Shown here one piece after another: positions 2,803-63,177 of a stretch of DNA of 64,000 bases. How positions within the stretch are numbered: position 1 is the first letter of the stretch; every line of letters begins with the position of its first letter. Position numbers and translations under genes: made by a program. The stretch comes from Candidatus Avidehalobacter gallistercoris (GTDB lineage Bacteria; Bacillota; Dehalobacteriia; UBA4068; UBA4997), in the NCBI GenBank assembly GCA_018715045.1, contig DVMH01000022.1, positions 10,291-74,290 of the forward strand. The letters are read 5' to 3'. Under the pieces are notes generated by a model that was given only the letters and a program-made list of their open reading frames with translations, had not been told where the DNA came from and searched no databases.

Positions 2803-4179
2803 ATGGAAAATAAAAATGCATTTTTATCGTACAACAAGAAAGCCATGCAGGAGCTGGAACGGGTAGCGGCGGGTTACCGTGATTTCCTTTCCCGTGGCAA
2901 GACTGAACGGGAGTGTGTCAAGCTGATTGTTCAGCAGGCTGAGGCGGAGGGTTATCGTAATCTGGCTGATCTGACGGCGGCGGGCGCTGACTTAAAGGCG
3001 GGCGATAAGGTGTATGCTGTCTGTATGAAAAAGGCGGTGGCATTGTTCAAAATCGGTGCTGAAGGGCCTGAGAAGGGCATGAATATCCTGGGTGCGCACA
3101 TAGATTCGCCACGGCTGGACATCAAACAGAATCCGCTGTTTGAGGACGGCGAGCTGGCTTATTTGGACACGCACTATTACGGCGGTATCAAAAAATACCA
3201 GTGGGTGACGCTGCCGCTGGCGCTGCATGGCACTGTGGTAAAAAAGGATGGCACGGCAGTTGATATCGTGATTGGCGAGGATGCGTCCGACCCGGTGTTC
3301 TGCGTGACGGACTTGTTGATCCATCTGGCACAGGAGCAGCTGGAGAAAAAGGGCGCGCGCGTGGTGGAGGGCGAGGATCTGAATATACTCGTCGGCAATA
3401 TGCCGCTGCCAGGCGAGAAGAAAAAGGCCGTGGCTGCCAATGTATTGCATCTGCTGAAAGAGAAGTACGACATCGAAGAGGCTGATTTTATCTCCGCCGA
3501 GCTGGAGGCCGTTCCTGCCGGGGCGGCGCGCGAGGCCGGTTTTGACGGCAGCATGATACTTTCATATGGCCAGGACGACCGTTCCTGCGCCTATACATCG
3601 CTGCTGGCCATGCTGGAGACGGCTGACATTCGCCGCACGGCCTGCTGCTTGCTTGTGGACAAGGAGGAAATCGGCAGCGTGGGTGCGACGGGTATGCAGT
3701 CGCATTTCTTTGAAAATGCGGTAGCTGAGGTGCTGGAGCTTTGCGGTGAATATTCCGAGTTGAAGCTGCGTCGGGCTCTCAGAGACAGCAAAATGCTTTC
3801 CTCCGACGTTAGCTCAGCTTATGATCATGCCTATGCCGCGGCGTTTGAGAAACAGAACGCAGCTTATCTCTCGCACGGGGTGGTGTTTAACAAATTCACC
3901 GGGGCACGAGGCAAATCCGGCAGCAACGACGCCAACGCCGAGTATCTGGCTTATATCCGCCGCGTGATGGACAACGCGGATGTGCATTACCAGACGGCGG
4001 AACTGGGGCGTGTCGATCTGGGCGGCGGTGGTACCATCGCGTATATTCTGGCTCTTTACGGTATGGAGGTCATCGACAGCGGTGTGCCGGTGCTGAGTAT
4101 GCACGCGCCGTGGGAAGTGACTAGCAAAGCGGATATTTATGAGGCGTACAAGGCGTATAAAGCGTTTTTAGAGGCTTGA
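2803..4179 (+). CDS. M18-family aminopeptidase
   Basis: About 458 aa. The N-terminus (NKNAFLSYNKKAMQELERVAAGYRDFLSRGKTERE) and length match Firmicute M18 aminopeptidase 1. SD ACGGAGGT precedes ATG 2803; the track ORF starts 21 nt earlier. Confidence 0.8.
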   Translation: MENKNAFLSYNKKAMQELERVAAGYRDFLSRGKTERECVKLIVQQAEAEGYRNLADLTAAGADLKAGDKVYAVCMKKAVALFKIGAEGPEKGMNILGAHIDSPRLDIKQNPLFEDGELAYLDTHYYGGIKKYQWVTLPLALHGTVVKKDGTAVDIVIGEDASDPVFCVTDLLIHLAQEQLEKKGARVVEGEDLNILVGNMPLPGEKKKAVAANVLHLLKEKYDIEEADFISAELEAVPAGAAREAGFDGSMILSYGQDDRSCAYTSLLAMLETADIRRTACCLLVDKEEIGSVGATGMQSHFFENAVAEVLELCGEYSELKLRRALRDSKMLSSDVSSAYDHAYAAAFEKQNAAYLSHGVVFNKFTGARGKSGSNDANAEYLAYIRRVMDNADVHYQTAELGRVDLGGGGTIAYILALYGMEVIDSGVPVLSMHAPWEVTSKADIYEAYKAYKAFLEA

Positions 4180-31235: not shown

Positions 31236-31250
31236 CGGAGATAATGCTTG

Positions 31251-34200
31251 ATGAGGCTTTTGCATGATTCCCACCGGGCGGAGTATCGCTCGCCTTTCGG
31301 TGCGCTGCCGCTGGGCAAGAGTTTAACTCTCTCTCTGGATGTTTGGGACGAGGATACCGAGGATGGTGGCTGGCTAACGGACGCCAAGCTGCGTGTTTGG
31401 CGTGAAGGACGGGGTGAAGAACTGCTGACGCTTACCCCTCAGATTTTAAGTGAAAATTACCGCCGTTTCAGCGTAACCATGCCGCCGGAGGAGGAACCGG
31501 GGCTGTTTTGGTATTATTTTATGTTGCAAGAAGCTTCGGGCAGTCTGCTTTTTTATGGCAACAATGCGGCGCACATGGGCGGCGTGGGAGAGATGAACCT
31601 CTCCGAACCCTGTTCTTATCAGGTGACGGTTTATCGACCAGAAGTTACTCCCGCCTGGTATCGGCGGGCGGTGTGCTATCAGATTTTTCCCGACCGTTTC
31701 TGCCGGGGCGATGATTGGCAGGACTGTCAGCGGCGGGCGGCAGCGGCTGATTGGCTTGGTTCCTGCCGCGTAGTGCAGCAAAGCTGGCATGACAAGCCGT
31801 TTTACGGCTATGACGACAAGGGGCGTGTGGTGCGCTGGCCATTTTTTGGCGGCAATCTTGCGGGTATTCGAGATAAGCTGCTGTATCTGAAAAGTCTCGG
31901 GGTGACGGCGGTTTACCTGAATCCTATCTTCCGTGCTACCTCCAATCACAAGTACGATACAGCGGATTATCGCCAGATCGATCCCAGTTTCGGTACGGAA
32001 GAAGACTTTGAGCTTCTTTGCGCGGCGGCGGCCAGGCTTGGTATCCGTATTATTCTGGACGGTGTGTTCAGTCACACCGGCGAGGACAGCCGTTATTTCA
32101 ACAAATTTGGCAATTATCCTGACCTGGGCGCGTATCAAAGCGAAGAATCGCTCTATTATTCGTGGTATAAATTTAAGAATTACCCGGAGGAATACGCCAG
32201 TTGGTGGGGTGTTTCTGCTTTGCCTGAGGTGAATGAGCAGGATGAAAGTTACCGCCGTTTTATGCTTGGTGAGGACGGTGTGGTGCGGTATTGGCTGCGG
32301 CATGGCGCTTCGGGCTGGCGGCTGGATGTGGCTGACGAACTGCCAGACGCGTTTATTCGGGATTTGCGGCAGGCTGCCAAGGCGGAAAAGCCGGACTCCC
32401 TGATTCTGGGCGAGGTGTGGGAGGACGCAAGCAACAAACGGAGCTATGGCGATCTGCGCTCCTATTTGCTGGGCGGCGAGCTGGACGCGACAATGAACTA
32501 TCCGTTCCGGGATCGTGCGCTGGCTTATCTTATGGGCGAGCAGAGGGCAGATGATTTGGCAGCGGCGCTTATGAGTCTGAAAGAGAATTATCCGCCGGAG
32601 CATTTCGCCGCGGCGCTGAATCTGCTGGGTTCACATGATACGCCGCGGGTGCTGACGGTGTTGTCAGGCGCTGTGGAGCCTGCCGACAAAATTGCGGCGG
32701 AGTATTTTACGCTTACGCCGGAACAGCGGGCATTGGCTAAAAGCCGTCTAAAACTACTTGCGCTCATGCAATTTGCTATGAGGGGTGTGCCGCACATTTA
32801 TTACGGCGACGAGGCGGGACTGGCTGGCTTTGCCGACCCATTTAACCGTGCGCCTTATCCATGGGGCGATGAGGATGATGAGCTGCTGGACTGGTACCGT
32901 CGCTTGAGCCGCCTGCGTGGAGAATACGATTTGCTGGTGGACGGAGATTTTCAACCGCAGGCGCTCTCACCGGACGTTTATGCCTGCCGCCGTTATTGGA
33001 CGGATAGCGATGAGAATCATGATGAGAATAATATAGAAGAAATCTGGTTGGTATGCAACCGATTGGGCGAGCCTCAAGAGGCCAAAGTGCCGCTTTCTGC
33101 TGCTTTCGGCTGGGGTATTGAGCTGCTTTCCGGCGAAGAAACGGATGTAAAAGGAGGTTTGAGTCGAATGCTGCCGCCTTATGGGGCGGAAATTTGGTTA
33201 TTCCGCTCTGCGGCGCCGCAGCCAATCAAACTTCCCCGTATGGCAGGCGTGCTGTGCCCAGTGTTGGCGCTGCCGACTTCCGAGGGGGGCTGGGTCTCTT
33301 CTTGCCGTCGTTTCGTGGATTTTCTGACTTTGGCTGGACAGAAATTGTGGCAGGTACTGCCGCTTAACCCGGTGGCGGAAAGCTTATCCCCCTACACGCC
33401 GCTTTCAGTGTTTGCAGGGCAGGAGCAGCTGGCGGCAGAGCTTTTGCGGTGTGTGGACTGGAGCGCCGAGCCGTCGGAGGAGTATTTTGAGTTTTGTCGT
33501 AATAACGCTGACTGGCTGGACGATTACGCTCTGTTTGCCGCTATCTGCGAGGCACGGGCGGGGCTGCCCTGGCAGCGCTGGCCACAGGCAGAGCGTGAAC
33601 GCGAGGATGTACCGCGTCTGATGGCCGCTTATGCTGAGGGGATGGAGAATTGCCGCCGCCGGCAGTATCTGTTCCGACGCGAATGGCATACTGTGAAAGA
33701 CTATGCTAACAAGCATGGCATACGTATTATCGGCGATCTGCCCATCTATCCTGCAGCGGCTGGAGCAGACGTTTGGGCGCACCGCGATTTGTTCCTGCTG
33801 GACGAGGCTGGTTATCCGCTTCTTTCCGCCGGTGTGCCGCCTGATTATTTTGCCGCCAGGGGACAGAACTGGGGTAACCCGCTTTATAACTGGGAAGCCA
33901 TGCGCCAGGATAACTACCGTTGGTGGCGTCGGCGTTTTGAGCTGGCGCTGGAGGATTTCGATTACCTGAGGCTTGATCATTTTCGCAGCTTTGCCGCTTT
34001 CTATGCGATACCGCAGGGCGAGGACGCAACGCAGGGATGCTGGCTGAAGGGGCCGGGGCATGGTTTTTTCCGCAGTATCGAGCGTGAACTGGGGCGTTTG
34101 CCTTTGCTGGCTGAGGATCTGGGCTTCCTGGACCGCGAGGTGTATAACCTGCTGCGGCTGGCAGCATACCCAGGTATGGCCGTTTATCAGTTTGAGCCGG

Positions 34201-34523
34201 AAAGAATTGCGGACGCGGCGTATCTCTCCGGGCGTGTTCTATATAGCGGTACGCATGATAACCAGACTTTGGCGGGCTGGCTTTCTGCCAGGGGTGGCGT
34301 GCCGGCGGTGGAGCGCGAACGGCAGGTGATAAATGAGCTTTATCAGAGTCAGGCGCCGTGGGTGATAATACCTTTGCAGGATATGTTCTCGTTGGGCGAT
34401 GAGGCGCGTCTGAACGTGCCGGGACAGGCCGAGGGCAACTGGCGCTGGCAGGCGGACTGGCAGCAATTCAAGCTGACGCTGGCGGCGGAGTATCAGAAAA
34501 TGGCCAAAAGTGCCGGACGTTAA
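31251..34523 (+). CDS. Two-domain protein: N-terminal GH13 alpha-amylase-family catalytic domain fused to C-terminal GH77 4-alpha-glucanotransferase (amylomaltase, MalQ-like)
   Basis: GH13 conserved regions I-IV (DGVFSHT; GWRLDVADE; LGEVWED; LLGSHDTPR). From about residue 660, RMAGVLCPVLALPTSEGG...FVDFL..AGQKLWQVLPLNP...SPY matches the MalQ N-terminus, and the rest matches GH77 (GDLPIYPAAAGADVW...NWGNPLYNWEAM). A single uninterrupted 1091-aa frame. Confidence 0.8.
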   Translation: MRLLHDSHRAEYRSPFGALPLGKSLTLSLDVWDEDTEDGGWLTDAKLRVWREGRGEELLTLTPQILSENYRRFSVTMPPEEEPGLFWYYFMLQEASGSLLFYGNNAAHMGGVGEMNLSEPCSYQVTVYRPEVTPAWYRRAVCYQIFPDRFCRGDDWQDCQRRAAAADWLGSCRVVQQSWHDKPFYGYDDKGRVVRWPFFGGNLAGIRDKLLYLKSLGVTAVYLNPIFRATSNHKYDTADYRQIDPSFGTEEDFELLCAAAARLGIRIILDGVFSHTGEDSRYFNKFGNYPDLGAYQSEESLYYSWYKFKNYPEEYASWWGVSALPEVNEQDESYRRFMLGEDGVVRYWLRHGASGWRLDVADELPDAFIRDLRQAAKAEKPDSLILGEVWEDASNKRSYGDLRSYLLGGELDATMNYPFRDRALAYLMGEQRADDLAAALMSLKENYPPEHFAAALNLLGSHDTPRVLTVLSGAVEPADKIAAEYFTLTPEQRALAKSRLKLLALMQFAMRGVPHIYYGDEAGLAGFADPFNRAPYPWGDEDDELLDWYRRLSRLRGEYDLLVDGDFQPQALSPDVYACRRYWTDSDENHDENNIEEIWLVCNRLGEPQEAKVPLSAAFGWGIELLSGEETDVKGGLSRMLPPYGAEIWLFRSAAPQPIKLPRMAGVLCPVLALPTSEGGWVSSCRRFVDFLTLAGQKLWQVLPLNPVAESLSPYTPLSVFAGQEQLAAELLRCVDWSAEPSEEYFEFCRNNADWLDDYALFAAICEARAGLPWQRWPQAEREREDVPRLMAAYAEGMENCRRRQYLFRREWHTVKDYANKHGIRIIGDLPIYPAAAGADVWAHRDLFLLDEAGYPLLSAGVPPDYFAARGQNWGNPLYNWEAMRQDNYRWWRRRFELALEDFDYLRLDHFRSFAAFYAIPQGEDATQGCWLKGPGHGFFRSIERELGRLPLLAEDLGFLDREVYNLLRLAAYPGMAVYQFEPERIADAAYLSGRVLYSGTHDNQTLAGWLSARGGVPAVERERQVINELYQSQAPWVIIPLQDMFSLGDEARLNVPGQAEGNWRWQADWQQFKLTLAAEYQKMAKSAGR

Positions 34524-59305: not shown

Positions 59306-59390
59306 TCCATGCCCCTTGACATAGATACCAAAACTTAGTATACTTATCGAAAAGGTAGGTAATAATTGTCGGTTAGGGGGCTGGATCATA

Positions 59391-61895
59391 TTGCGGAAAT
59401 TTAAGGTTATGGGCATGAGTTGTGCAGCCTGTAGCAGCCGGATAGAAAAGACTGTGTCAAATGTGCCGGGCGTATCCTCCTGCACGGTTAGCCTGCTCAC
59501 CAACTCTATGGGCGTAGAGGGTGAGGCGACGAGCGAAGCAATTATTGCGGCTGTGCGCGCGGCCGGCTATGATGCCGCAGTGGAGTGCGCTGCGGCGCAA
59601 ACGGCATCTGCGAATCAGGATTCCCTTAAGGATATTGAAACGCCGCGGCTGATGGCGCGCTTGCTGTGCTCGCTGGGCTTTTGGCTGGTGTTGATGTACG
59701 GCACGATGGGGAATATGCTGCTAAATCTGCCGCTGCCTGGGGTGCTGGCGGATAACCCGATCACCATGGCGTTGGCGGAACTGTTGTTGACTGTTATCGT
59801 TATGGTAATTAATCAAAAATTTTTTATTTCCGGCTTTAAGGGGCTGTTGCATTGCGCGCCAAATATGGATACGCTGGTGGCGCTGGGCGCGGCGGCGGCG
59901 TTTGTTTACAGCTTGTGCGTAATGTTTATGATGACGGTGGCTGAAGCTTCCGCCCAGGCAGCTTATCTGCATGAGTTATATTTTGAATCTGCCGCCACTA
60001 TTTTGACGTTGATAACACTGGGCAAAATGCTGGAGGCGCGTTCGAAAGGTAAGACGACGGACGCGCTGCAAAGCTTGCTGCGTCTTTCGCCTACCATGGC
60101 GGTGGTATTGAAAGACGGCGTGGAGCAGGACGTGCCGGTGCAGGATGTGCGGCAGGGCGACGTCTTTATCGTGCGGCCGGGCGAGCATATCCCGGTTGAC
60201 GGAGAGGTTTTGCAGGGCGCCAGCGCGGTGAATGAGGCGGCGTTGACCGGGGAGAGTATACCGGTGGAGAAAGCCCCCGGCGACGCGGTTTCTGCTGCCA
60301 CGGTCAACCAATCCGGGCATTTGACCTGCCGTGCCACCCGAGTGGGCGAGGATACGACGCTGGCACAGATCATTCGGCTGGTTAGCGACGCGGCGGCAAC
60401 TAAGGCCGAAATCGCCAAACTGGCGGACAGAGTTTCCGGCGTGTTTGTGCCGGCGGTTATTGCGATTGCTCTGGTGACGGCGGTCGTCTGGCTGGCTGTG
60501 GGTGAAAGCGTGGGCTTCGCGCTTGCGCGGGGCATATCGGTGCTGGTAATCAGCTGCCCCTGCGCTTTGGGGCTGGCTACGCCGGTAGCGATCATGGTAG
60601 CCAGCGGTATGGGCGCCAAGGCGGGCATTCTGTTTAAGACGGCCGCATCGCTGGAGGAAATGGGCAAAGCGGTTATCGTGGCGCTGGATAAGACAGGAAC
60701 GATTACCCGCGGTGAGCCGGCGGTGACGGATATTCTGCCGGAGCAGGGCGTCGCCGCGCAGGAGTTGCTGCGGCTGGCTGCGGCGCTGGAGGTTAAAAGC
60801 GAACACCCGCTGGCGAGTGCAGTGGTGCGCCGGGCGCAGGCGGAAGGTCTGATATCTGCACAGGCGGAGGATTTTACCGCTTTACCGGGGCTGGGTTTAA
60901 GCGGCACGTTAAACGGTAAGAAGCTGCTGGGCGGTAGCTTGGCGTATATCAGCGGAGAGACTGCATTGCCGCAGGCGGCGCGTCAGAAAGCGGAGGAACT
61001 GGCAGGCGCGGGCAAAACGCCGCTGCTTTTTGCGTATGACGGGCGGCTGCTGGGTATAATAGCCGTGGCAGACGTGATAAGAGAGGGAAGCCCCGCCGCT
61101 ATCCGTGAATTGCAGCAGCTGGGCTGTCGGGTGGTGATGCTGACGGGCGATAACGAGCGCACAGCGGCTGCTATCGGGCGCGAGGCCGGGGTGGACGAGG
61201 TGTTTGCTGAACTTATGCCTGCCGGCAAGGAGCAAATCGTGCGCCAGCTTGGTAAGCTCGGCAAAGTTGTCATGGTAGGTGACGGTATTAACGACGCTCC
61301 GGCGCTGGCTGCGGCGGACTTGGGCGTGGCTGTCGGCGCCGGAACTGATGTCGCCATCGACGCGGCGGACGTGGTGCTGATGAAGAACAGTCTGGCTGAT
61401 GTGGCGGCGGCGGTGCGCTTGAGCCGTGCAACGCTGCGGACGATCAAACAAAATCTGTTCTGGGCTTTTGCCTATAACGCGGCGGGCATACCGTTGGCGG
61501 CTGGCGTATTCATTCCTCTGTTCGGCTGGCAGCTGAACCCGATGTTCGCGGCGGCGGCCATGAGTCTTTCCAGCTTCTGCGTGGTGACCAATGCTCTTAG
61601 GTTAAACACGTTTAAGATGTATCCGCCGACTGATCGGGCAGAAATTGCACTGAAAAATACAACGCTAATTAAGGAGGAACCTAAAATGGAAAAGGTTTTA
61701 CACATTGATGGCATGATGTGCGGTAATTGTGAGAAGCACGTGAAGAAAGCGCTTGAGGCGTTACCGGGTGTGAGTAAGGTCGAGGCCAGTCATGTTGACG
61801 GCACGGCTGTGGTGACGATCTCCGGTGAGGTCAGCGACGAACAGCTTAAAAGCGCCGTGGCGGCCGAGGATTATACCGTCACTTCTATTGATTGA
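59391..61895 (+). CDS. copA: Copper-translocating P1B-type ATPase with N-terminal HMA domain and an additional in-frame C-terminal CopZ-like HMA domain
   Basis: [13 protein letters not shown] (HMA), [30 protein letters not shown]; C-terminal [19 protein letters not shown]... (second HMA) preceded in-frame by an AAGGAGGA SD and ATG. TTG start at 59391 with an AGGGGG SD. Confidence 0.85.
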
Positions 61896-61904
61896 AAAGC
61901 AAAT

Positions 61905-61940
61905 AAAAAAGTGCTTCTGGAGTAAGAAGCACTTTTTTAT
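61905..61940 (+). terminator. Rho-independent terminator after copA
   Basis: AAGTGCTTCT-ggagta-AGAAGCACTT followed by TTTTTATTTT. Confidence 0.65.
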
Positions 61941-62090
61941 TTTATGTGCCAAATCGATTTGGTGTTCCCGGCCTAAATCCTTGAATATCGAAATGAATAC
62001 AAAGAATAGATGCCAAGAAGTGAACGGATATGGGCATTTCTTATGGTTATACGCCAAAGATGATTTTCCACAGGTAGTTTAACCATCAAA

Positions 62091-62130
62091 ATAGAGCTAT
62101 CATCTGAATAGAGGCGGTAGCTCTATTTTT
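62091..62130 (+). terminator. Hairpin with T-tract (ATAGAGCTA-18 nt loop-TAGCTCTAT TTTT) in AT-rich spacer
   Basis: Seen directly; no convincing upstream gene, so function is uncertain. Confidence 0.3.
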
Positions 62131-62254
62131 GTACACGATAATCCGTGCAATATGGTATCATGGCTATAAAAATTTTTGCGAGATTTTTGTAAGATTTGAG
62201 TTCAAAAGTGGTGTATATAGGTGAAAGGGTAAAAATGAAAGTGAGGTGGGTTCA

Positions 62255-62662
62255 ATGGATGATGCGCAGATAGTCCAACTATACTGGGATAGAAGTGAGC
62301 AGGCAATCCCTGCTACAGCAGACAAGTACGGCAACTACTGTACTTCGATTGCCAAGAACATACTGGTAAACAAACAAGATGCAGAAGAATGTGTCAATGA
62401 TACATACTTGAACGCATGGAACTCCATTCCGCCGAACAGGCCGGGAAATCTCTCTACCTTTCTTGGGAAGATTACAAGGAACTTATCAATCAAACGCTAC
62501 AATCGCAATGCTGCGGACAAACGAGGCGGTGGTCAATTGCCGGTAGTTTTGGATGAAATGTTGGAACTGGTATCAGATACAGATAGTGTAGAGCAGGAGA
62601 TAGACCGCAGAGAACTTATATTCGTTTCCGCTTGCCGATTCCGTACCGGAAGAATTATTTGA
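62255..62662 (+). CDS. Sigma-70 region-2 (ECF-like) domain protein, possibly frameshifted/disrupted
   Basis: DAEECVNDTYLNAWNSIPP resembles ECF sigma region 2.2. Low GC. A second open frame with no start codon (62604-62861) continues downstream in another frame. GTGAGGTGGG SD precedes ATG 62255. Confidence 0.4.
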   Translation: MDDAQIVQLYWDRSEQAIPATADKYGNYCTSIAKNILVNKQDAEECVNDTYLNAWNSIPPNRPGNLSTFLGKITRNLSIKRYNRNAADKRGGGQLPVVLDEMLELVSDTDSVEQEIDRRELIFVSACRFRTGRII

Positions 62663-63048
62663 TGTCGTAGACCATCCTATTTTTGATATTGACGAACTGA
62701 CATTGGAAGCTGTCAGCCGCAGATCCTACTTTATCAACGAGAACATCGACACAGACGAAATCAGAATGACTTTCGGTGTCCGTTATGGGGATATTGTTGT
62801 AGATGTTACGACTAAGGGCGTATCGCCGGAATGGATTTATGAGCAGCTAATAAATATTTGAAAGCAAAGGTTGTATTCATTTTAGCTATAGTGGCTGAGT
62901 AAATGCCCTGAAAACTGAATACTGACACCAAAAGACAGCCGGGAAAATTTTCTATGCCGGCAAGCAGAAAGGAGCGCCCAACCATGATAAAAACTGGCGA
63001 GAAATCCCATGAGAAACTGCCCCATTAGTTGATAGCGGTAGCCTGACA

Positions 63049-63086
63049 GGAAAGAGGCTATTCCAATTTTGGAATAGCCTCTTTCC
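63049..63086. repeat. Perfect 16-bp inverted repeat (GGAAAGAGGCTATTCC-aatttt-GGAATAGCCTCTTTCC) 3' of the GltD-like gene
   Basis: Seen directly; no flanking U-tract, so it may be a terminator/processing hairpin or a protein-binding palindrome. Confidence 0.35.
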
Positions 63087-63177
63087 TATGTTACCTGATG
63101 AATAAATTTACATTTGGTCAAGCTAACCATATTCCGTGAACACAAAATGGAATTAGGAGTATTTTATTTGCGTGGGG

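Follow-up and report, generated by a model that had tools for sequence, protein, structure and literature searches.

In classical copZ operons, such as csoR-copZ-copA of Bacillus subtilis or copYZAB of Enterococcus hirae, the gene for the copper chaperone CopZ accompanies that of the P1B-type ATPase CopA. Many bacterial genomes are believed to lack copper chaperones, and the function of the metal-binding domains (MBDs) in P1B-ATPases is still debated. We analysed a stretch of 64,000 nucleotides (the window; position 1 is its first letter) from Candidatus Avidehalobacter gallistercoris (assembly GCA_018715045.1, contig DVMH01000022.1), which carries a copA gene whose 3′ end encodes a second, C-terminal HMA domain in frame with the pump, preceded by a Shine-Dalgarno (SD) sequence and an ATG of its own. 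We propose, with a probability of about three in four, that this copA is a dual-output gene, which would give the CopA with its tethered domain and, via in-frame internal initiation, a free CopZ-like chaperone. An earlier note on this DNA had suggested the same two products, and the suggestion is supported by the codon conservation at SD and ATG, the strength of the SD, the open mRNA around the start and the existence of relatives with split genes.

The precedent for such a gene is copA of Escherichia coli, from which the pump and the small CopA(Z) are made by programmed −1 frameshifting (Meydan et al. 2017; Drees et al. 2017; as reported in PMC7558416 and bioRxiv 10.1101/2022.11.09.515450). 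Like E. coli copA, the gene described here is proposed to give a pump and an HMA chaperone of ∼70 aa that is identical to its own MBD and depends on the same promoter. In E. coli the first N-terminal MBD is released by early termination after the frameshift, whereas here the C-terminal domain would be released by a new in-frame initiation. The promoter of E. coli CopA/CopA(Z) is copper-responsive. The E. coli slippery heptamer CCCAAAG is absent from the + strand of 59391–61895, and the window protein has one N-terminal HMA only. The analogy to CopA(Z) drawn in the earlier note therefore stands for the outcome and falls for the mechanism, since a C-terminal domain is concerned, which requires no frameshift, and the heptamer is lacking. 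The two solutions would be convergent.

C-terminal MBDs of P1B-ATPases are recognised and carry the name ‘MBD+1’ in the current nomenclature (PMC10973460). Archaeoglobus fulgidus CopA, compared here by description only, likewise combines an N-terminal HMA, the ATPase core and a C-terminal HMA on one polypeptide. We know of no internal ribosome-binding site or start described for ‘MBD+1’ P1B-1 ATPases such as A. fulgidus CopA; unlike these ATPases as described, the family of the window gene keeps SD and ATG at the nucleotide level. Experimentally shown examples of internal initiation include IF2 beta, ClpB-79, CheA-S and SpaO-C/YscQ-C, and to our knowledge no metal transporter/chaperone pair is among the known examples. 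The copA junction shares with them an in-frame SD and start at a domain border and a short product that corresponds to the C-terminal part of the long one, but unlike those cases it is deduced from conservation. In-frame internal initiation yielding C-terminal isoforms is accepted in bacteria and has been treated genome-wide (bioRxiv 10.1101/520783). In a full-text literature search, with incomplete coverage and few subscription journals, no internal start for a C-terminal CopA HMA was found, nor any proteomic or ribosome-profiling detection of the two products. For Haemophilus influenzae a copA with tandem copZ copies has been described (PMC10187127). The predicted free module would resemble classical CopZ, an HMA protein of ∼69 aa with a site of the GMxCxHC type whose gene is transcribed together with copA, in many cases under CsoR control; it differs from the classical operons in that no stop codon separates copA and module. 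Each component is known in kind (C-terminal MBD, pump plus chaperone gene, internal initiation); the combination is widespread and apparently new, but not categorically so.

The description of the locus as a CopA with a complete in-frame C-terminal HMA holds: both Pfam and AlphaFold place a complete domain, 69 aa in length, at the end of a single 834-aa open reading frame (ORF). The last transmembrane (TM) helix ends with ...VVTNALRLN, and a 26-aa linker without stop codon then leads into the C-terminal HMA. AlphaFold models residues 766–833 as a beta-alpha-beta-beta-alpha-beta fold (pLDDT 82–88) that starts exactly at Met766, the first residue of strand beta-1; linker residues 741–765 have a pLDDT of ∼31 and no secondary structure. 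The full-length model, built on a 24-sequence alignment, is moderate (mean pLDDT 67, pTM 0.45) and was used solely for the C-terminal domain and the linker borders. The 69-aa piece can be aligned end to end with solved HMA proteins of 66–69 aa, and over residues 5–67 it aligns with the 69-aa NmerA (2kt2). Its site GMMCGNC spans aa 774–780, with the CxxC cysteines encoded at 61719–61721 and 61728–61730. The module misses the cut-offs of the curated CopZ equivalogs (NF047957, 57.5 vs 85 bits; NF033795, 41.5 vs 91 bits; NF033794, 35.8 vs 95 bits), and because of this ‘CopZ-like’ denotes a functional analogy and no family assignment.

The DNA of the junction reads ATT AAG GAG GAA CCT AAA ATG. The earlier note had called the SD in front of the ATG a textbook example, which is right for the motif (AAGGAGG) and trivially off for the spacing, given as 7 nt and measured as 8 nt from the end of GGAGG to ATG 61686. 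Among the 26 internal in-frame ATGs of the gene the junction ATG has by far the strongest SD pairing (−11.1 vs −6.9 kcal/mol for the next), and the motif resembles true gene starts of the same genome, e.g. ATAAGGAGGATTTAACCATG. The 60-nt window around the ATG belongs to the least-structured 4% of the coding sequence (CDS) of the window gene (minimum free energy, MFE, −9.0 vs −18.1 kcal/mol). The RNA structure of the junction is otherwise unremarkable (z = −0.96), and a comparison with Rfam gave nothing above the gathering score at the junction and weak matches on the terminator hairpin behind the gene. The pattern GGAGG-N4-10-ATG occurs 32 times in the 64 kb, mostly at genuine gene starts and in a few cases inside long ORFs (e.g. 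33168); a single in-frame occurrence in a long ORF within 64 kb is thus not beyond chance. The exact position at the domain border and the conservation in relatives, taken together, can be considered beyond chance. The occurrence at 33168 belongs to an ORF of 1091 aa (31248–34523) with an in-frame AAAAGGAGG-N10-ATG; it lies apparently off the border between the two parts of this ORF, which by eye only are alpha-amylase-family-like (N-terminal) and 4-alpha-glucanotransferase-like (C-terminal), and is probably due to chance.

Two sets of relatives were compared. The protein set comprised the 120 best homologues (63–100% identity, ∼830–860 aa), each of which covers 100% of the query and has the C-terminal HMA (120/120). 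For the genomic set one genome per species was scanned with an alignment of the C-terminal 125 aa; of at least 592 confirmed hits the best 80 were examined, fusion was scored in the 79 loci with locatable motifs, and the SD statistics are based on 78 loci. The best 80 loci belong to Lachnospiraceae, Oscillospiraceae and other Clostridia, together with contigs labelled Synergistaceae, Senegalimassilia and Bulleidia. Cultivable carriers of the gene include Roseburia faecis JCM 17581 (L003), Enterocloster citroniae DSM 19261 (L045), Fusicatenibacter saccharivorans and Marvinbryantia formatexigens DSM 14469. A 100% identical protein (P0001) is assigned to Candidatus Avidehalobacter gallistercoris, a member of Peptococcaceae according to NCBI taxonomy. 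In all 79 scorable species loci copA reads into the HMA without a stop, and the closest relatives (89–91% and 69–70% identity) share the in-frame fusion. A comparison with orthologs, in which a stop codon at the junction would have spoken for a simple assembly error, had been set as a test by the earlier note and revealed no such stop. That the fusion is an artefact of assembly or sequencing, or a very recent loss of a stop codon in what is truly copA plus a separate copZ, could be suspected because the window stems from a metagenome-assembled genome and split versions exist in other lineages. This explanation is effectively refuted by the 79 fused species loci and by contigs of diverse provenance (NCBI, Logan, ENA), 3 + 15 in number, that encode the identical protein or C-terminus. 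The suggestion that a copA/copZ pair had lost its stop codon is thus contradicted as a local event (79/79 loci and 120/120 proteins are fused), although an ancient copA-copZ fusion is plausible as the origin. By this comparison the fusion is old and the rule, neither an assembly error nor a recent stop-codon loss.

A stand-alone copZ-like ORF was found neither in the 3.5-kb surroundings of copA at the 80 loci nor in the 64-kb window, which fits a role of the module as the local chaperone. A foreign origin of the 3′ module was considered and rejected: the GC content at third codon positions shows no meaningful difference between HMA part and core (0.59 vs 0.61 in 73 loci).

At the nucleotide level, the start signal is conserved in a linker that otherwise is not. 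The junction Met, located at −8 from the glycine of GMMC, is kept in 77/79 loci and 119/120 proteins, and in an alignment of diverse C-termini this Met and a Glu at −4 are the only invariant linker positions outside the HMA. Variants of the SD motif (AAGGAGG, AAGGAGA, CAGGAGG, GAGGAGG, ATGGAGG) occupy the same place in almost every species. Information content is maximal at −15 to −8 (AAGGAGGA), and this includes third codon positions, with G at −13 in 66 and at −10 in 68 of the 78 loci. The remaining linker is A-rich and near random (pairwise identity 39%; the 78 loci give 77 distinct 30-mers). Linkers in the relatives are between 18 and 59 aa long and differ by indels of as many as 41 codons. 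The divergence of all surroundings of the motif argues against simple inertia. Base −13 is G with Lys, Gln, Met and Glu alike at codon −5, therefore the constraint acts on the RNA and not on the protein.

The codon choice points in the same direction. At codon −4, 65 loci have GAG and 3 have GAA; at codon −5, 41 have AAG and 1 has AAA; at codon −3, 43 have GAA and 3 have GAG. In the rest of the same linkers the ratios are 11 GAG to 63 GAA (15% GAG) and 64 AAG to 205 AAA (24% AAG). The bias at the SD against the linker remainder corresponds to Fisher p values of 9e-25 (Glu) and 3e-21 (Lys), which, as the loci share ancestry, suggest more independent events than there are. Over the whole gene, GAG accounts for 53% of the Glu codons and AAG for 52% of the Lys codons; in core columns with an invariant Glu or Lys, the share of GAG or AAG is 28–85%. 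Synonymous resampling of the seven upstream codons gave a mean of −6.4 instead of −9.4 kcal/mol. Since just two codons carry the SD signal, few loci are significant individually, and pooled position-specific codon counts with local controls were used in place of resampling per locus.

Such a pattern bears on the explanation that SD and ATG are the silent, unused relic of an ancient copA-copZ fusion. In agreement with a relic, some P1B-ATPases are known to carry C-terminal MBDs (PMC10973460), and two relatives described below (L068 and P0016/L094) keep the fused domain without an internal start; moreover, the free form is a prediction from sequence comparison. Yet a relic is expected to decay synonymously, and GAG/AAG are kept at 96–98% compared to 15–24% in the neighbouring Glu and Lys codons, in linkers whose identity has dropped to 39% and which differ by indels of as many as 41 codons. 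Elsewhere in these genes, few internal ATGs (1.6%) have an SD-like motif at the correct spacing, and in one split relative (L085) the domain is under purifying selection after having been cut off from the copA start. We therefore consider a silent relic unlikely.

The junction also behaves like a start site in strength and accessibility. The mean SD duplex is −9.4 kcal/mol at the junction, −8.9 kcal/mol at the primary start of copA in these loci and −2.5 kcal/mol at other internal in-frame ATGs (n = 2032), and duplexes of −8 kcal/mol or lower are formed by 90% of the junction sites vs 1.6% of these controls. In 73/78 loci the 60 nt around the ATG fall into the least-structured 5% of the CDS (mean MFE −2.5 vs −15.0 kcal/mol), and the second codon ends in A in 69/78. 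The distance from the end of GGAG to the ATG is 9 nt in 60/78 loci, despite a distance of 18–59 codons to the last TM helix. The SD-like sequence could alternatively cause an elongation pause by pairing with the anti-SD, aiding insertion of the last TM helix or folding of the ATPase. SD-mediated ribosome pausing has been proposed but is disputed, and the motif lies 18–59 codons past the last TM helix, roughly where the helix would exit the tunnel. We regard a pause as very improbable, because the motif is fixed to the ATG (the 9-nt gap in 60/78) and varies by 41 codons in its distance to the helix, because the ATG itself is conserved in 77/79 loci, and because SD and ATG are kept where no in-frame ribosomes arrive from copA (L085, L095, L088–L090 and L098, see below).

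Relatives with an unfused module provide a further line of evidence for internal initiation. In L085, L086 and L087, which come from three samples, an operon consists of csoR, a copA of 752 aa, an 81-nt spacer and a gene for a 69-aa HMA protein. The L085 spacer is in frame and its DNA is nearly identical to the linker of the fused locus L006, the two loci being 90% identical over 2.55 kb; at the junction a CGA (Arg) of L006 is replaced by TGA directly after the last TM helix. Fused and split states thus appear to be one nucleotide apart. Translation of the L085 HMA is possible solely from its SD (aaaggaag) and ATG, and the ORF differs from that of L006 by 17 synonymous and 4 non-synonymous substitutions (core, 118 : 64), because of which we regard it as being under purifying selection. 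In L095 the module gene overlaps copA by ATGA and has the SD aaaaggag, and in L088–L090 it overlaps copA by 23 nt out of frame with the SD AAGGAGGA. L098 and L099 carry a stand-alone module gene without copA, preceded by the SD TAAGGAGG; the L098 contig begins 78 nt ahead of the ATG, as a truncated copA might. In each of these unfused states the module has this SD and ATG as its gene start.

Some features of these loci deserve a separate mention. L088–L090 (junction at ∼3990–4025) and L095 (2990–3010) belong to a clade with 63–71% GC and have PMT-family and acylphosphatase genes nearby; their separate HMA gene encodes 70 aa behind a strong SD, and both frames are open across the entire linker. 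In L099 the HMA gene (1966–2175) adjoins a DDE transposase (IS240-like) on the opposite strand (309–1706), which hints that the module may be mobilised apart from copA. L081, L082 and L097 were excluded as split genes, since copA is broken into several pieces there by an apparent indel error of long reads (names e.g. ctg002801l).

A free HMA could also arise from a separate short transcript, driven by a promoter inside the 3′ region of copA, which would be partly compatible with the dual output proposed here. According to its title, the work of Drees et al. (2017; via PMC7558416) assigns differential transcript formation a contribution to E. coli CopA(Z), and in both L098 and L099 a TTGACA lies just upstream of the stand-alone gene. 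The promoter scan, on the other hand, revealed no sigma-70-like site on the + strand of 59933–61895, and the conserved block upstream of the ATG consists of the SD alone. A short transcript as the source of the free HMA is quite unlikely.

Short database entries had to be treated with care. A search of a representative library of 1.84 billion proteins with the 69-aa domain yielded multi-HMA proteins and truncated CopA fragments as top matches, and a search with a 70-aa relative of the domain yielded many gene calls of 69–70 aa, several of them on long contigs. Most of the 69–70-aa HMA ‘proteins’ (P0175, P0271–P0386) lie on contigs of <2 kb. Most of those on short contigs are probably a database artefact, namely 3′ ends of contig-truncated copA genes that were called from the internal SD and ATG, and calls on small contigs were left out of the count of split genes. 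As artefacts of gene callers, they show how gene-like the internal start looks.

Several observations weigh against a dual output. The 78 loci are species representatives and phylogenetically non-independent, which means that the p values exaggerate how many independent events lie behind them. A control Glu column (C.HCE) likewise reaches 85% GAG, and synonymous resampling per locus is individually significant in only 4% of the loci. L068 and P0016/L094 keep the fused domain without SD and Met. Elongating ribosomes arriving from upstream could occlude the internal site, and a copZ may be located elsewhere in the carrier genomes, outside the 3.5-kb flanks scanned. Finally, we infer both the free 7.3-kDa protein from the fused gene and its chaperone role. 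Besides the two lineages that lack the signal, the ATG is shifted by one codon in L013 and the SD is weak in L021 and L022. P0016 (L094:1501–4305) is a CopA of 934 aa with two near-identical tandem C-terminal HMAs, neither of them with SD or Met, and this lineage appears to have switched fully to tethered domains. Since these exceptions keep the fusion without SD and ATG, the tethered domain is useful in its own right, and loss of the internal start is possible.

We propose the following scheme for the dual output of copA. Ribosomes starting at TTG 59391, behind an imperfect SD, would synthesise the 834-aa pump with its N-terminal HMA and, held by the flexible 26-aa linker, its tethered C-terminal HMA. 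On the same mRNA, 30S subunits would bind the unstructured, A-rich linker at AAGGAGG and start in frame at ATG 61686 behind a perfect SD. The product would be a free, 69-aa CopZ-like Cu(I) chaperone of 7.3 kDa, identical in sequence to the tethered domain. It may buffer cytosolic Cu(I) via its MMCGNC (CxxC) site and pass Cu(I) on to the MBD or the entry platform of the pump, a delivery role that is modelled on the CopZ/CopA systems as reviewed in PMC7558416. One shared mRNA would couple the synthesis of chaperone and pump, with a ratio set by the two initiation sites. More tentatively, in a proposal that may well turn out to be wrong, the scheme could be extended to a large clade of gut anaerobes, mostly Clostridia. 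There CopZ would be the internally initiated 3′ product of copA and possibly its main molar product, the ratio would be hard-wired, and single-nucleotide changes would be enough to turn the fused module into a stop-separated, overlapping or stand-alone one and back, with one and the same ribosome-binding site throughout; this would be a second, mechanistically independent invention beside the E. coli frameshift.

The features of the locus are compiled in Table 1.

Table 1 Features of the copA locus in the 64-kb window (positions refer to the window; L092 and L093 are loci of relatives, 89% and 69% identical, respectively)
Feature	Position	Strand	Basis and remarks
Promoter-like TTGACA-17-TATACT upstream of copA	59316..59344	+	11/12 matches; position homologous to the csoR-copA promoter of L093
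ATACC-N8-GTAT, degenerate, probable vestige of a CsoR operator (inferred)	59325..59341	+	Comparison with L093; G/C tract lost in the window
SD-like TAGGGGG of the primary start	59374..59380	+	Duplex −9.3 kcal/mol; L092 has TAGGAGG there
copA, Cu(I) P1B-type ATPase, 834 aa, TTG start, stop included	59391..61895	+	ORF list, Pfam, NCBIfam
N-terminal HMA metal-binding domain	59391..59582	+	Pfam residues 4–61; GMSCAAC at 59412–59432
CPC motif of the transmembrane metal site (TM4), aa 389–391	60555..60563	+	Motif scan
DKTGT phosphorylation motif, aa 433–437	60687..60701	+	Motif scan
Linker between last TM helix and C-terminal HMA, aa 740–765 (26 aa); doubles as predicted initiation region of the internal ORF	61608..61685	+	AlphaFold, relatives, folding
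Internal SD AAGGAGG within the Lys-Glu-Glu codons AAG GAG GAA	61671..61677	+	Duplex −11.1 kcal/mol; position and codon choice kept in relatives
Internal in-frame ATG, Met766	61686..61688	+	Sequence, AlphaFold, relatives
C-terminal HMA, predicted 69-aa CopZ-like ORF (7273 Da, pI 4.8), stop included	61686..61895	+	Pfam, AlphaFold, alignment
Hairpin with flanking A and T runs, bidirectional, intrinsic-terminator-like, 6 nt past the stop	61901..61942	+	Program call on the − strand; symmetric AAATAAAAAAGTGCTTC...GAAGCACTTTTTTATTT

The pump itself has all hallmarks of a Cu(I) transporter. Pfam finds, in this order, an HMA (residues 4–61), the E1-E2 ATPase domain (9e-57), the HAD/hydrolase domain (2e-37) and the second HMA at the C-terminus. 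The P-type core is complete, with DKTGT (aa 433–437), TGES of the A domain (aa 286–289) and GDGINDAP of the hinge (aa 630–637), as is the Cu(I) signature, with CPC (aa 389–391), AYNAAG (the YN of TM5, aa 694–699), MSLSS (the MxxSS of TM6, aa 724–728) and SEHPL of the N domain (aa 470–474). The NCBIfam model TIGR01511 (ATPase-IB1_Cu) is matched with 577.9 bits at a cut-off of 397, and the score against NF007952, the equivalog of E. coli CopA, stays below the cut-off (658 vs 1316 bits). By these signatures the window CopA can be placed in the P1B-1 subfamily without being an equivalog of E. coli CopA, and Cu(I) export is predicted. The TTG start is preferred over that of the database model P0002 because it is backed by the N-termini of homologues (e.g. 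MRKYKVSGMSC...); P0002 begins at a downstream ATG, has 826 aa and loses the first beta-strand of the N-terminal HMA (59391–59417).

The statement of the earlier note that no regulator gene is adjacent is confirmed for CsoR: by tblastn the 64-kb window contains neither a CsoR homologue nor another HMA ORF, and no explicit search for CopY was made. Hallmarks of a CsoR-regulated cop operon are accordingly lacking at this locus, which has no csoR (PF02583) and just the degenerate ATACC-N8-GTAT at the promoter. Among the relatives csoR is present in at least 17 of 70 upstream neighbours and in L085, L093 and L094. L092 has the same synteny as the window and no csoR, and in the syntenic L093 csoR is located between the kinase gene and copA, for which reason the absence of csoR looks like a derived, lineage-specific loss. 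At the place of the degenerate box, between −35 and −10, L093 has ATACCCCCCTATGGTAT, together with a second CsoR-type box, TATACCCTTGGGGGGTATA. Both the window (59306–59390) and L092 (3914–4000) keep a near-consensus promoter (compare L093:3537–3651). Expression of copA may be constitutive here or controlled from elsewhere.

The neighbourhood comprises tsaD, the genes for 5-formyltetrahydrofolate cyclo-ligase and a histidine kinase, copA and a sigma-70 region-2 fragment. A hairpin similar to that listed in Table 1 follows copA in L092. Between copA and a gltD-like gene, ∼1.25 kb (61900–63150) have a GC content of ∼40% compared to ∼60% in the flanks. This stretch holds an ORF (62246–62662) with only sigma-70 region 2, is missing in L092, where the next gene follows 70 nt after copA, and resembles an inserted segment or a relic of some foreign element.

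The arrangement is common to many species of gut Clostridia and has apparently not been described before. The precedent of E. coli CopA(Z) illustrates that a chaperone can hide inside copA. If the C-terminal HMA is released, the annotation of many gut Clostridia as chaperone-less would be wrong, and the 834-aa model would under-describe the locus. Database ‘proteins’ of 69–70 aa that derive from contig-truncated copA genes need careful interpretation. A domain that is both tethered and free would, if true, offer an experimental handle on the role of MBDs. The locus would also show, as a neat case from nature, how genes can fuse and split while the ribosome-binding site stays in place, and for bacterial copper homeostasis it would represent a second, convergent route by which the synthesis of pump and chaperone is coupled.

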